Shown here in pieces: positions 1,437 to 4,938 of a stretch of 64,000 nucleotides of DNA. The translations under genes were made by a program, and so were the position numbers. Where the stretch lies: contig CAVUSO010000001.1 of NCBI GenBank assembly GCA_963744145.1, forward strand, positions 5,440,001 through 5,504,000, read 5' to 3'. The notes below the pieces were generated by a model. It was not told the origin of the DNA, did not search any database, and saw only the letters and a program-made list of their open reading frames with translations. The DNA is from an uncultured cyanobacterium (GTDB lineage: Bacteria > Cyanobacteriota > Cyanobacteriia > Cyanobacteriales > CAWUOF01). Within the stretch, counting starts at the first letter, position 1; every line of letters begins with the position of its first letter.

Positions 1437-1699
1437 GTAGGGGCGAAGCATTCGGGCGATAATTAATCACTTAAACCGATAATATTATACCCGAATGCTT
1501 CGCCCTTCTTCTGGCGATATCTCCCAAAAAACTTAACTGAATGGTATTTTTATATAGTTGACTGAATGGTATTTTTATATAGTTGATCTGCTGGCTGCAT
1601 AGATGGTGAGGGCAAAGCATTTCGGTAATACTATTCTTCGTTTAAGCAATCACTTATTCGCCGAAATGCTTTGCCCCTACGGGTAACTAAATTGGATTG
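1437..1699. mobile_element. Composite MITE/REP block, near-copy of 5087-5324
   Basis: Two REP-like hairpins; degenerate right end TAACTAAATTGGATTG; internal 25-bp tandem duplication at 1536-1585. Confidence 0.75.
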
Positions 1700-1726: not shown

Positions 1727-3706
1727 TCAATCCAAATCTATTTTGGCAAAGTGGTCTTGCAAATACTTATGTATAAAGCGATAGCGACCACCAATACGTT
1801 GCAATAAAAGACGTTCGGTGCAGTAGTTGAGCAGAAGATCATAGCGCAAGGGCACATAGTGATTCCAGGCAAGGATAAAACGCAGAGCAATGTGTTGTAT
1901 TAATGCTTGCCCACCACCTGCCTGAAAACATAAAAAAATTAAAATAGCTATAGAAGTCGCAATTAATATAGGGATAACTTGAGGATTAACGATACTGATA
2001 TTCGTGAGTATATGTTCTAAGAGGACCTTAAGGGGTATTGCTAACACCACGGCAATTAGAGTTAATACTACCATATTTTTCAGTGAGTTTTTGATGCCCT
2101 GATTAGGCTCAATCCTAGTTTGGATATCAGTTTTTAGCCCATGAATCAGCCCATGAATCAGCCCAAGAACCAGCCCAAAACCCAGCCCAAAACCCAGCCC
2201 AAAACTCAGCCCAAAACCCAGCCCATGAATCAGCCCAAGAACCAGCCCAAAACCCAGCCCAAAACTCAGCCCAAAACCCAGCCCGTAAGCAAGTGATCGT
2301 AAAATTTCTCGTCCTACTTTGTAGGACATTGAAATTGAAATTACTTCTACTGGCTCAATTTTCCCACCAACCAGACCACCAGCCAGCCCACCAGCCAGCC
2401 CAATAACCAGCCCAATAACCAGCCCAATAACCAGCAAACCAACCAGCAGACCAACCAGCCCAATAACCAGCCCAACAACGAGTTTATATGCCAATTTTTG
2501 CCGCCGAATAATAAGTTCGGTTGGCTGCATTTTTTCGATTAATAATTCCGTGCTAGATTCGCGAGAAAGCATCTTAGCGGTAAAAATAAGCGATCGCTTG
2601 ACTTGTTTATTTGATGGCAGTAACTTAGTACCATAAGTTTTGCTGCGAACACCTCGCCTTTTTTCATTAGGGTCAATAATCAATTCACGAGTAATAGTTG
2701 TTTCCCAATAAGTATTGAGCAAATATTCAATTCTTGTCTCGGAATCAATACGCGATCGCCAAGATTCAAGAGAAAACTTTCCTTGTGTCTGCACCAAACC
2801 AAACATAGATAAAAACAGAGGCGTTTTCAGCATCGCCTGCAAAGCTTCATCTTGCTGCACCGTTTGCCATACATCCTGCAACTGAAACTGAGTAAAATAT
2901 TCTTTAATTTGCTCAATAGTTAATGCTTGCAAATAAATCGCCCCATACAGATTCAGACGCTGCCGCACCGCATTCTCAAACTCTTCTCGCCGACAACAAA
3001 CTAACACACCGCAAGGTTGCTGCTCAATATCCCCCGTCAACCAAATATTAAGCATTTTTGCACAATCTTCTTGATACTGGGTTGCTACCTCATCCAACCC
3101 ATCCAGCATAGGTAAAAGTTGATTTTCCTTTAGCCATTGCTTTGCCAAATCCTGACCAATCCCATATTTTTCCTTCAACTCACCCAACAACCACTCATAA
3201 ATTGATTGCTGCGGATCTTTCCAAGAGGACAAACTAAGTAAAACTGGGATTGGCTCGATTTTATCTTTTATCGCTCTTTGCAACAAATCCTGTGCCAATT
3301 CCAGCATCATCGTAGTTTTACCAGAACCTGGTTCACCCAGAATTAGCAATTTACGCTCAATTTCTGGGCGATCGAATACCTCTACAATTCGAGTTCCAGC
3401 ATCCAAGGGTACTGCTAACTGGGATGCTTGCGCGATCGTTGCTGACCAAGGACGTTGGATGCGATAGTCTTGCTGTTCCATTCCCAGAATCAGCCATACT
3501 GCATTGTGCAACGACTGTGATAACCGCTCCTTTATCTCTGTTTTTACTGTTAGTAACAGTTTTTCTTGGGATGGTTCTCGTTTAGCTTTTAGTGGTTTTG
3601 GATCTTTTACTGTTAGTAACAGTTTTTCTTGGGATGGTTCTCGTTTAGCTTTTAGTGGTTTTGGATCAGGTTGAGAATTGCAGGTTAAGACTTTTTTGCT
3701 AGTGCC
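1727..3706 (-). CDS. NACHT (STAND) NTPase with C-terminal multi-TM Gly-Leu repeat region; frame open from 3706, first start codon only at 3511 (TTG), probably entered by -1 frameshift
   Basis: Walker A GEPGSGKTT; Walker B LLPMLDGLDEV; GLxx TM repeats; C-terminal LLQRIGGRYRFIH; protein-like coding sequence continues upstream of 3511 (QEKLLLTVKTEIKERLSQSLHNAV). Confidence 0.85.
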   Translation of the reverse strand, partial: GTSKKVLTCNSQPDPKPLKAKREPSQEKLLLTVKDPKPLKAKREPSQEKLLLTVKTEIKERLSQSLHNAVWLILGMEQQDYRIQRPWSATIAQASQLAVPLDAGTRIVEVFDRPEIERKLLILGEPGSGKTTMMLELAQDLLQRAIKDKIEPIPVLLSLSSWKDPQQSIYEWLLGELKEKYGIGQDLAKQWLKENQLLPMLDGLDEVATQYQEDCAKMLNIWLTGDIEQQPCGVLVCCRREEFENAVRQRLNLYGAIYLQALTIEQIKEYFTQFQLQDVWQTVQQDEALQAMLKTPLFLSMFGLVQTQGKFSLESWRSRIDSETRIEYLLNTYWETTITRELIIDPNEKRRGVRSKTYGTKLLPSNKQVKRSLIFTAKMLSRESSTELLIEKMQPTELIIRRQKLAYKLVVGLVIGLVGLLVGLLVIGLVIGLVIGLAGGLAGGLVGGKIEPVEVISISMSYKVGREILRSLAYGLGFGLSFGLGFGLVLGLIHGLGFGLSFGLGFGLGFGLVLGLIHGLIHGLKTDIQTRIEPNQGIKNSLKNMVVLTLIAVVLAIPLKVLLEHILTNISIVNPQVIPILIATSIAILIFLCFQAGGGQALIQHIALRFILAWNHYVPLRYDLLLNYCTERLLLQRIGGRYRFIHKYLQDHFAKIDLD
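2136..2476 (-). repeat. 12-bp coding tandem repeats (GLGF/GLIH/GLVI units) inside the NACHT gene
   Basis: CAGCCCAAAACC and ACCAGCCCAATA units in two blocks. Confidence 0.85.
3542..3667 (-). repeat. Perfect 63-bp in-frame tandem duplication
   Basis: 3542-3604 equals 3605-3667; encodes DPKPLKAKREPSQEKLLLTVK twice. Confidence 0.95.
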
Positions 3707-4176
3707 TTAGACCACTTTATAAAAGTTGGGAAATGCGATCGCAAAAAGTTCTCTGTGTCCAGCTCTGCTTCATAGGACACATTAACAAACGGTGGTAGTA
3801 GAGACAGTGCCCCCTTTAACTTAGCAGCCGCAGGTGTTTCCGGTTTACTCACTTCAGCATAAATTTTCTGTAGCCATTCCAAGACTTCATCAGAATATTG
3901 CTGACTCGTTTGCAGTTGTCCCACTTGTTCTACAATCTCAGCAACAACAACTTCTGGTGCTGGATCTAGTATCGTGGTTGTCGCGGGTTCATCCGCCAAA
4001 ATTTGCCAATATTCTCTTTCAAACGGTTGCATCTCTTTTTTCAAATCCTTAATCTGCTGCTTAATCCGAGCCCGTTCTTCGGGAGCAATCGTTATTAATG
4101 TATCTTCTTTTCCTGCCAATTGGTCACGCAAACGGGTCAAATTTCTTTCAAGTTGGCGCAAGCGATCGCTGGACAT
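3685..4176 (-). CDS. Helical/coiled-coil hypothetical protein; candidate N-terminal module of the NACHT protein
   Basis: 163-aa ORF ending GCA AAA AAG TCT TAA, overlapping the NACHT frame. Confidence 0.75.
   Translation of the reverse strand: MSSDRLRQLERNLTRLRDQLAGKEDTLITIAPEERARIKQQIKDLKKEMQPFEREYWQILADEPATTTILDPAPEVVVAEIVEQVGQLQTSQQYSDEVLEWLQKIYAEVSKPETPAAAKLKGALSLLPPFVNVSYEAELDTENFLRSHFPTFIKWSKALAKKS
3691..3697 (-). other. Candidate -1 ribosomal frameshift heptamer A_AAA_AAG
   Basis: Correctly phased in the 163-aa ORF, two codons before its stop; the -1 frame is the NACHT frame. Confidence 0.65.
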
Positions 4177-4344: not shown

Positions 4345-4938
4345 ATGTCTACCTTAATTCAAAACTTAACTGAAAACCCACCAGAGAAAAAAAATTGGAC
4401 TGATGACGAATTCATGACCCTGAGTCGAGATGGACATCGCTACGAAATTGTCAATGGCAAACTAATGGATATGGGAAACTCTGGCGCAAAACACGGTTAT
4501 ATTGCCATTATTTTAAGTGCTGCTTTGTTTAATTTTGTATCAACCAGAAAATTAGGAGTCTTGCTGGACTCTAGCACTGCATTTAAGATGAAATCAGGAA
4601 ATAAGCGATCGCCCGATATTTCCTTTGTGGATAAAAAACATTTACAAGGAATAGACGATCTCCCCAATGATTTTCTCGAAGGTGCCCCTGATCTGGCGAT
4701 AGAAATCCTGTCTCCTAGCAATACAGTGGCAGAAATACATGACAAACTGGTGGAATATTTTGAGAATGGGGCACGTTTAGTGTGGGTAATCCATCCTCAA
4801 GAACATTATGTTTTGGTTTATCGTTCTAGATTGGGACCCGATCGTCTGCTCAAGTCTACCGACTCCCTCAATGGTGAAGAAGTAATCCCTGATTTCACTT
4901 TCCCGATCGCGGATCTGTTTCAAAAACTCGCTTTTTAA
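4345..4938 (+). CDS. Uma2-family (DUF820) putative endonuclease
   Basis: RYEIVNG, RSPDISF, APDLAIEILSPSN and YFENGARLVWVI motifs. Confidence 0.9.
   Translation: MSTLIQNLTENPPEKKNWTDDEFMTLSRDGHRYEIVNGKLMDMGNSGAKHGYIAIILSAALFNFVSTRKLGVLLDSSTAFKMKSGNKRSPDISFVDKKHLQGIDDLPNDFLEGAPDLAIEILSPSNTVAEIHDKLVEYFENGARLVWVIHPQEHYVLVYRSRLGPDRLLKSTDSLNGEEVIPDFTFPIADLFQKLAF

Follow-up and report, generated by a model that had tools for sequence, protein, structure and literature searches.

Programmed −1 ribosomal frameshifting has been described for few chromosomal genes of bacteria, with dnaX and csoS2 as examples (Antonov et al. 2013, PMC3711429; Atkins et al. 2016), and it is very common in IS3 insertion sequences (Atkins et al. 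2016). In dnaX, slippage is stimulated by a downstream hairpin and an upstream Shine-Dalgarno (SD)-like element (Antonov et al. 2013, PMC3711429). The effector-associated domain (EAD) has been defined as a small non-catalytic domain that core components have in common with effector proteins (Kaur et al. 2020, PMC7159879), and core proteins of the STAND NTPase and VMAP type usually bear EADs at their N termini (Kaur et al. 2020, PMC7159879; Kaur et al. 2021, PMC8195603). In the window analyzed here (i.e., the whole 64,000-nt stretch of DNA, from an uncultured cyanobacterium), a 163-aa open reading frame (ORF163) ends at the slippery heptamer A_AAA_AAG, and an open reading frame (ORF) for a NACHT NTPase (P0001) overlaps it in the −1 frame. 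From the sequence and its conservation, we consider it likely that programmed −1 ribosomal frameshifting at this site yields two proteins, the 163-aa EAD-like adaptor in free form and an 816-aa fusion of this adaptor with NACHT.

On the minus strand, ORF163 closes with ...TCT AAG GCA CTA GCA AAA AAG TCT TAA, and the heptamer stands in the phase X_XXY_YYZ relative to its zero frame (Table 1). The −1 frame is closed on the upstream side by a TAA at 3709-3707, opens at 3706, 19 nt ahead of the ORF163 stop, and stays open for 659 codons; the +1 frame at the slip site is open for 10 codons only. The earliest ATG, GTG, or TTG in P0001 is a TTG at 3511-3509, 65 codons in; it lies inside ...SQS-L-HNAV and has no start codon ahead of it in this frame. 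Of the features of a tandem-slip −1 signal, the locus has a phased heptamer, a long overlapping start-less −1 ORF, and a conserved site; an RNA structure 5 to 9 nt 3′ of the heptamer, which is usual for such signals but not obligatory, is absent from the window copy. Such a slip is predicted to join ORF163 residues 1-162 to P0001 residues 6-659 (654 residues), giving 816 aa with the junction ALAKK|VLTCNSQPDPK. A first-pass annotation, made from the letters of the window, had placed the heptamer at the end of ORF163, set the limits of the −1 frame, and counted the 65 start-less codons; its coordinates hold on a minus-strand reading, and the fusion size and junction peptide that it gave both follow from the sequence.

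According to the mechanism that we propose, ORF163 and the NACHT ORF would be one recoded gene. Ribosomes would initiate at ATG 4176, and the majority would terminate at TAA 3687-3685 and release the free 163-aa module. A minority would slip by −1 on A_AAA_AAG, the P-site tRNA-Lys shifting between two AAA codons and its A-site counterpart exchanging AAG for AAA, and would continue in the −1 frame to produce the 816-aa protein, with the module at the N terminus of a NACHT NTPase with a membrane-embedded insert. The slip cassette is a property of the module and not of the NACHT gene, and consists of the heptamer, a stop 0 to 1 codon later, usually a hairpin 3 to 8 nt 3′, and often an SD-like AAGG 7 nt 5′. 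In filamentous cyanobacteria, it precedes NACHT, NB-ARC-TPR, nSTAND1, nSTAND4, nSTAND5/AAA_16, VMAP-C, and TM-TPR proteins.

Homologous loci were collected from species-representative genomes (12 loci), metagenome contigs (37 loci), and 301 genomes of the same order (30 + 40 loci); module matches were found in 61 of these 301 genomes and in 35 of 119 genera. The final set comprised 103 distinct loci including the window, i.e., 68 (7 duplicate records dropped) plus 35 (5 partial matches dropped). Each locus was tested for an in-phase X_XXY_YYZ at most 45 nt from the stop and inside the open −1 frame, and the length of the −1 ORF was recorded, with that of the +1 ORF as a control. A heptamer followed by a −1 ORF of at least 200 aa past the stop was present in 62 of the 103 loci; the −1 ORF was open to the end of the locus in 4 others and measured 80 to 199 aa in another 4. 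Long +1 ORFs, counted over all classes, were found in 2 loci. The heptamers of these 70 loci (62 + 4 + 4) were A_AAA_AAG (64), A_AAA_AAA (3), G_GGA_AAG (2), and A_AAA_AAT (1), and the zero-frame stop followed the heptamer directly in 32 and one codon on in 28. The opening of the −1 frame mostly lay 13 to 37 nt 5′ of the stop, and in a few loci as far as 334 nt from it. The first-pass annotation had suggested asking whether homologues share a phased slip site and a start-less −1 ORF, and the answer is positive for the 62 loci, to which 8 with a −1 ORF that is shorter or cut by the locus end can be added; the opposite outcome that it named, in-frame fusions with no conserved slip site, was not seen, as the homologues are mostly out of frame and their site is conserved.

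Some loci depart from this layout in ways of their own. Two distant relatives, L078 and L121, carry G_GGA_AAG, placed 7 nt ahead of the module stop codon. Past this heptamer, L121 has a GCCCCGA/TCGGGGC hairpin that begins at a distance of 6 nt and, in the −1 frame, an 830-aa nSTAND1-WD40 ORF. The two long +1 ORFs, of 817 aa behind T6 in L110 and of 206 aa behind A9 in L092, could be explained by other recoding or by an indel. In L012 and L074, the −1 frame of the module ORF is closed and a diverged second copy of the module's N-terminal hairpin lies in the +1 frame, 103 to 343 nt after the module stop, which looks like a tandem module arrangement.

Codon usage at the slip site is strongly constrained. 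A160 is encoded by GCA in 40 of 42 cases, K161 by AAA in 43 of 46, and K162 by AAG in 39 of 46. Comparison columns, although well conserved as residues, vary (AAA/AAG counts of 27/18 at K23, 29/35 at K119, and 37/25 at K121), and the codons of A116 are mixed (GCG, 25; GCA, 25; GCT, 8; GCC, 6). The codon ahead of the two lysines keeps A in its third position even if it specifies Leu, Val, Pro, Gly, Thr, or Glu. Natural controls are provided by long proteins that carry the module at the C terminus and have no −1 ORF; their heptamers are broken (GCA AAG AAA TAA in L027; GCG AAA AAG TGA in L055 and L057). The exception, L066 (TRADD-N-type), has no −1 ORF and retains the heptamer and half of a relative's hairpin; it looks like a recombination remnant. 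The codon counts indicate that the heptamer is more than a Lys-Lys tail.

The position of start codons points in the same direction. Over 69 loci, the distance from the stop to the first ATG, GTG, or TTG of the −1 ORF is more than 90 nt in 26, 31 to 90 nt in 23, and 0 to 30 nt in 12; in the remaining 8, this codon precedes the stop. Possible starts are scattered among the 12 aligned NACHT-type loci, with no conserved position. The peptide LLLTVKTEIKERLSQSLHNAV of the window, which the first-pass annotation had recognized as a NACHT lead-in, aligns with the conserved lead-in SQEKLLQAVTTEVRERLAQSLHNAVW; the latter is present in 10 of the 11 other aligned NACHT-type loci and begins before the possible starts in 11 of the 12, with L076 as the deviating locus in both counts. 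In six loci, the Pfam match to nSTAND1 (E 1e-108 to 1e-120) sets in at residue 8 to 10 of the −1 read, right after the slip. A start of the NACHT protein on its own at 3511, which the first-pass annotation had kept in mind, was not indicated; the conserved peptide and, in relatives, the nSTAND1 domain set in ahead of any start codon.

Fusions of the same parts also occur in frame. L021 and L022 carry A7 and encode a 730-aa fusion of the window's NACHT type (...KALAKKALACDPEV...SQAKLLQAVTTEV... and ...KALAKKALACDPEV...AKREPSQAKLLQAVTTEVQGRLDQSLHNAV...), and further in-frame proteins join the module to nSTAND1 (P0211, 1169 aa), nSTAND4 (P0020), and AAA_16/TPR (P0221). The −1 ORFs themselves are diverse. 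In a first set (n=49), 11 encoded NACHT, 22 NB-ARC (mostly with TPR), 1 nSTAND4, 1 nSTAND5/AAA_16, 3 TPR only, 1 Peripla_BP, and 10 no family; in a second set (n=18), 6 encoded nSTAND1 (with WD40, pentapeptide, or FGE-sulfatase sensors), 7 VMAP-C, 3 TM-TPR, 1 nSTAND4, and 1 none. These classes are unrelated, and the slip site thus travels with the module and not with a particular NTPase.

The −1 ORF of the window scores above the Pfam cut-off for NACHT and contains a Walker A and a Walker B-like motif. Its hydrophobic, Gly/Leu-rich membrane region is built in part from 12-nt-period repeats and precedes the C-terminal ...GGRYRFIHKYLQDHF motif. Two such arrays, at 2136-2284 and 2363-2479 (about 12 and 10 copies, 82 to 84% matches), encode the membrane segments GLGFGLSF... 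and GLVIGLVI..., and changes in their copy number could alter the length of the insert. Against models of known antiphage NACHT/Avs proteins, matches were to NCBIfam EruA (29.6 bits versus a 1000-bit cut-off) and PADLOC PDC-S60 (E 2.9e-6).

Homologues of ORF163 form about 390 clusters (89 to 286 aa, mostly 161 to 165 aa), all from filamentous cyanobacteria (e.g., Coleofasciculus, Allocoleopsis, Symploca, Microcoleus, and Trichocoleus), and a profile search of 1.84 billion representatives returned 288 clusters (50% identity) at E <= 0.001. An AlphaFold2 model from 86 sequences is all-helical (pLDDT 90.5, pTM 0.83), with a hairpin of two long helices at residues 2-62 followed by six short helices at 74-162. 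Pfam EAD9 (PF19962) matched residues 4-55 weakly (20.6 bits, E 3.8e-4; below the 25-bit cut-off) and matched 17 of the 86 family members at E <= 0.01 (best 6.3e-5). Residues 74-162 had no match in Pfam, NCBIfam, PADLOC, PDB, or ESM Atlas families; PADLOC returned no match for any part of ORF163, Foldseek found nothing in the PDB at E <= 0.001 for the module model, and the ESM Atlas matches of the module were to unnamed cyanobacterial clusters only. A wide VIA-align search gave a best Z of 7.7, to generic helical hairpins, and a Z of 6.9 to UPF0147 proteins over residues 70-159. Fold assignment on this basis was dropped, these Z values being in the range common for helical models, and the VIA-align comparison did not support a Death-like six-helix bundle.

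The distribution of the module suggests that it behaves like an EAD as defined by Kaur et al. 2020. It stands at the N terminus of NTPase and VMAP core proteins, either through the predicted frameshift or in frame (L021, P0020, P0211, and P0221), and, in genomes other than that of the window, it is also found on effector or signalling proteins, i.e., at the C terminus of proteins with TIR_2 (P0022), TRADD-like_N (P0017), EAD11 (P0026), or an SNF2 helicase (P0002). Proteins with a C-terminal module end ...KALAKK(S), like ORF163. By a count made by eye, 24 of the best 150 representatives have the module at the C terminus; its in-frame placement at the N terminus of STAND NTPases is rarer. The genome of the window also encodes a 485-aa TCAD3-CHAT protease that ends in a bona fide EAD9 (L080, C1:3480856-3483344; 29.3 bits). 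The gene after it has an iSTAND domain and, by eye, an EAD9-like start that was not called by Pfam, and the two read as a textbook EAD pair.

Possible stimulators of slippage were found on both sides of the heptamer. In most clades, a stem-loop starts 3 to 8 nt past the heptamer, with stem sequences that are unrelated between clades (CCCTCGA/TCGAGGG; AGCCCCTT/AAGGGGCT; GACCTGGA/TCCAGGT; CCGGAG/CTCCGG; stems of 12 bp in L031 and of 14 bp in L045 and L058). The stability of the 42 nt past the heptamer was ranked against sliding windows of the same −1 ORF for 46 loci; this stretch was within the top 5% for stability in 19 cases and within the top 10% in 23 (4.6 expected). As the loci are related, the binomial figure for this enrichment overstates significance and is only indicative. 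RNAalifold predicted 15 pairs in the nSTAND1 group, 2 of them with double changes, and 0 pairs on 13 NACHT/NB-ARC-type sites, whose stems the alignment does not keep in register; the NACHT/NB-ARC stems were read from per-sequence folding. SD-like 4-mers occurred at −20 to −4 in 41 of 61 loci versus 14.3 expected, and 5-mers in 27 versus 4.7, mostly as TAAGG at 7 nt; this motif overlaps conserved Ser-Lys-Ala codons and is therefore only suggestive. The hairpins were ruled out as intrinsic terminators of ORF163, the stems having no T-run.

Several observations weigh against programmed frameshifting or restrict it. Among the 103 loci, which are relatives and not independent samples, 13 have a heptamer followed by a −1 ORF of less than 80 aa, 1 (L119) has a long −1 ORF and no heptamer, and 19 have neither. 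Seven of the 46 ranked loci are above the median in the comparison of 3′ stability, and the window is the least structured of all, with a minimum free energy of 0.0 over the 42 nt past the heptamer, so that the first-pass annotation was right to see no clear 3′ hairpin here; compared with close relatives, both stem halves, GCCC and GGGC, are mutated. The genome encodes one tRNA-Lys(CUU) and two tRNA-Lys(UUU). In Escherichia coli, the shiftiness of AAG is owed to the absence of a CUU tRNA, and with tRNA-Lys(CUU) present an E. coli-like efficiency cannot be assumed and may be low. Having lost the hairpin and gained a fresh 63-bp duplication at its place, the window may also shift less efficiently than its relatives do. 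Finally, the genome holds a single copy of the module and no second module-bearing protein. ARAGORN further reported a tRNA with a 4-base anticodon (tcta) at C1:3136396-3136470, which has mismatches in the acceptor stem and is probably a false call or a pseudogene; as a cause of the shift it was ruled out, since its acceptor stem is poor and it would act in the +1 and not the −1 direction.

Other points of this kind would agree with two ordinary genes, in which the NACHT protein starts at TTG 3511 or at a non-canonical codon and the A-rich end of ORF163 is a Lys-Lys tail. The TTG exists, and AAGGAG sits 15 nt 5′ of it. The KK residues are conserved as protein, including in the proteins with a C-terminal module, and part of the conservation of the heptamer is therefore at the protein level. 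Independent initiation is possible in 20 of the 69 loci, where the −1 frame has a start codon before the stop (8) or at most 30 nt after it (12). In five loci (L038, L042, L043, L048, and L073), the slip site and the NB-ARC ORF are parted by a 0.7- to 0.8-kb insertion; about 360 to 625 nt past the module stop, it contains a gene for an 82- or 89-aa ParE-family toxin (Pfam E 8e-8), and the NB-ARC ORF behind it has its own ATG, so that the NTPase can work uncoupled. Even so, we regard two separate genes as very unlikely. Heptamer codons are nearly fixed while other synonymous columns are free, no start position is conserved, and the conserved peptide and the whole nSTAND1 domain begin ahead of any start; the −1 frame is open in 62 loci versus 2 for the +1 frame and mostly opens just before the stop, and in-frame fusions of the same parts occur. 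Sister loci of the five (L037, L040, L041, and L044) are uninterrupted, and similar linker segments flank the ParE insertion on both sides.

Less probable again is programmed transcriptional slippage, by which RNA polymerase would add an A to the A6 run and the resulting A7 mRNAs would encode the fusion, with the same two products. Longer runs in relatives (A7 in L011; A9 to A10 in L049, L062, L063, L085, and L088) and the sensible fusion encoded by the natural A7 allele of L021/L022 would fit this mechanism, and A runs of more than 7 have been tied to transcriptional realignment (Antonov et al. 2013, PMC3711429). However, the sequence is exactly A6G in 64 of 70 loci, which is shorter than the runs named by Antonov et al. 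2013, and two loci have G_GGA_AAG, which is no homopolymer but a canonical tandem-slip heptamer. A hairpin 3 to 8 nt downstream in half of the loci and a stop 0 to 1 codon on are likewise features of ribosomal slippage.

The reading of the A run was checked in sequence archives. A 63-bp (21-codon) duplication begins 24 nt 3′ of the heptamer, encodes DPKPLKAKREPSQEKLLLTVK twice as part of the NACHT lead-in, and is absent from the 11 other aligned NACHT-type loci. In run X1, the repeat interrupts the Logan contigs and has 2 to 3 times the depth of its flanks, and the duplication is therefore taken to be real; it is recent and keeps the frame. A 1460-nt X1 contig spans 3638-4200 with 0 differences and 0 gaps, so that the run is A6 and not A7. 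X1 is probably the source sample of the genome and therefore not independent, and the check depends on X1, as runs X2 and X3 did not reach the slip site. Within this limit, the assembly error (A6 for A7) that the first-pass annotation had allowed for did not appear in a second assembly of the reads. Another X1 contig (record 5, 514 nt) matches the window at 3692-3741 only, i.e., the last 50 nt of the module ORF, with 3 differences and unlike flanks on both sides; it may represent a second cassette from another organism or locus. Mutation, whether as a decaying fusion gene, an assembly error, or a DNA-level A6/A7 phase-variable switch, would accord with the A7 in-frame allele of two metagenome records (L021/L022), with decayed relatives (L010, L012, L024, and L061, besides L066), and with the lost hairpin and recent duplication of the window, but is highly improbable: the out-of-frame layout recurs in 62 to 70 of the 103 loci and in many genera, which random mutation cannot explain, A6 was read again in the second assembly, the 659-codon −1 ORF is intact with its Walker motifs, the duplication is frame-keeping, A6 is short for efficient slipped-strand mispairing, and DNA-level switching leaves the hairpins and the G_GGA_AAG variants unexplained.

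Programmed −1 ribosomal frameshifting thus remains our preferred reading. Judging from the EAD literature and the domain context, the fusion would be an NLR-like sensor acting through its membrane insert, and its N-terminal modules, once clustered, would recruit module-bearing partners homotypically. Since the genome has one module copy, the only possible homotypic partner of the fusion would be the free zero-frame product, and frameshifting would therefore set a fixed excess of the free module over the sensor. A bolder combination of ideas, which we hold to be rather unlikely as a whole, makes the slip site a sensor of infection or stress, the free module a polymerising unit nucleated by the fusion, and the cassette a portable “recoding plug.” The share of shifting ribosomes would then change with the supply or modification of tRNA-Lys or with pausing at the adjacent stop, and, in a cell under attack, a pool of harmless free adaptor would give way to more fusion. 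The activated, oligomerised fusion would nucleate the free module by analogy with the Death-fold filaments of animal inflammasomes, one gene supplying both parts, and cyanobacteria would be able to attach the cassette to any STAND or VMAP sensor.

Table 1. Positions of the features of the putatively recoded locus within the window
Feature	Position	Strand	Remarks
ORF163	4176..3685	minus	163 aa; ATG at 4176, stop TAA 3687-3685; zero-frame product, all-helical adaptor module
SD-like 5-mer TAAGG	3705..3709	minus	7 nt 5′ of heptamer; possible 5′ stimulator; contains the TAA that closes the −1 frame
−1 frame ORF P0001	3706..1727	minus	659 codons plus stop at 1729-1727
Slippery heptamer A_AAA_AAG	3697-3691	minus	phase X_XXY_YYZ relative to ORF163
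Perfect tandem duplication, 63 bp (21 codons)	3542..3667	minus	2.0 copies, 100% identity; in frame, NACHT linker
TTG	3509..3511	minus	candidate rival start of −1 ORF; inside conserved lead-in ...ERLSQS-L-HNAVW
NACHT NTPase domain	2885..3349	minus	P0001 residues 120-274; Pfam PF05729, E 3.8e-12, 46.8 bits (cut-off 26.7)
Walker A GEPGSGKT	3337-3314	minus	in NACHT domain of P0001
Walker B-like LDGLDE	3106-3089	minus	in NACHT domain of P0001
Membrane region	1895..2500	minus	hydrophobic, Gly/Leu-rich; P0001 residues 403-604, Kyte-Doolittle scan
YRFIH of the C-terminal motif	1783-1769	minus	
Inverted repeat, 16 nt, perfect	1610..1676	.	35-nt spacer; 51 nt past NACHT stop; possible transcript end

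Neither the inverted repeat beyond the NACHT stop nor a 25-bp perfect tandem repeat (2 copies at 1536-1586, just past the same stop) is followed by a T-run, and a scan for promoter and terminator consensus sequences found nothing exceeding shuffles and no terminator-like site. The divergent neighbor at 4345-4938 on the plus strand is a Uma2-family putative endonuclease (Pfam E 4.7e-32).

A literature search, with subscription journals outside its scope and a GeneTack cluster that covers this family being possible, found no report that links frameshifting to EAD, NACHT, NB-ARC, or STAND genes. The word “frameshift” is absent from Kaur et al. 2020 (PMC7159879) and 2021 (PMC8195603); its sole mention in the bacterial NACHT preprint concerns phage escape mutants, and that in the 2026 Avs paper concerns phage tail chaperones. 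In the passages covered, neither Antonov et al. 2013 (PMC3711429) nor Atkins et al. 2016 has anything relevant on such genes. The mechanism of frameshifting is known, and its use as a portable cassette that joins an adaptor to many NLR-like sensors appears to be undescribed. If correct, our interpretation would add to the recoded genes a family of 288 clusters (50% identity) found in 35 of 119 sampled genera of one cyanobacterial order, and would be the first case of programmed frameshifting within NLR-like/STAND systems of the immune type. Annotation would change as well: “hypothetical 163-aa proteins,” in the hundreds, would have to be read as N-terminal adaptor domains, and the NTPases behind them, which current annotation starts internally, would acquire an adaptor of the EAD type linking them to TIR, TRADD-N, and helicase partners. 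The locus would offer a natural test case for why a sensor should require its own adaptor domain in free form and at a fixed excess, and its compact slip cassette (heptamer, adjacent stop, clade-specific hairpins, and two heptamer types) a means to study frameshifting alongside tRNA-Lys(CUU).

Among systems known to shift, E. coli dnaX (tau/gamma) is close in that it has the identical A_AAA_AAG and is one chromosomal gene with two products sharing their N terminus. The shifted ribosome stops at once in dnaX and makes the shorter protein, whereas here it would make the long one; furthermore, the window has no hairpin, the SD-like motif lies at 7 nt here versus 10 in dnaX, and the genome here has tRNA-Lys(CUU). 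The OrfA/OrfAB arrangement of IS3 elements shares a short ORF ending at an A_AAA_AAG-type site, a start-less −1 ORF, and a fusion that bears the catalytic part. An IS3-family insertion sequence was nevertheless ruled out for our locus, in which the −1 ORF is a NACHT/STAND NTPase and not a DDE transposase, no terminal inverted repeats were found, and the copy is single in the genome. The gpG/gpGT pair of phage lambda resembles the predicted products in its low fixed ratio of long to short protein, set by a −1 slip near the end of the short ORF; it differs in that our locus lies outside any phage context and encodes unrelated proteins. The heptamer of the lambda tail chaperone is G_GGA_AAG, the alternative heptamer of L078 and L121. 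Long and short TAC isoforms from programmed frameshifting are also mentioned in the 2026 Avs paper.

With the EAD systems (Kaur et al. 2020, PMC7159879; Kaur et al. 2021, PMC8195603), our locus shares a small non-catalytic helical N-terminal module on a VMAP/STAND core, fusion of the module to TIR, TRADD-like N, and EAD11 as well, enrichment in multicellular cyanobacteria, and a hairpin that weakly matches EAD9. It differs from them in that the link to the core would be made by recoding and not by in-frame fusion, in its sub-cut-off EAD9 match, and in the lack of a second copy in its own genome. CsoS2 of alpha-carboxysomes is likewise a case of cellular −1 frameshifting in autotrophs, including cyanobacteria, that gives two isoforms in a defined proportion (Atkins et al. 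2016). Its protein and function are unrelated to ours. The frameshift of CsoS2 yields the shorter isoform. A further parallel is offered by the NLR-associated amyloid motifs of filamentous bacteria (bioRxiv 10.1101/2020.01.06.895854), where the N terminus of an NLR shares a short element with a partner from an adjacent gene, suggesting templated signalling. The shared part in our case is a 163-aa helical fold and not an amyloid motif, and whereas the amyloid element is encoded twice, in two genes, the module is encoded once and would be shared through a change of reading frame.

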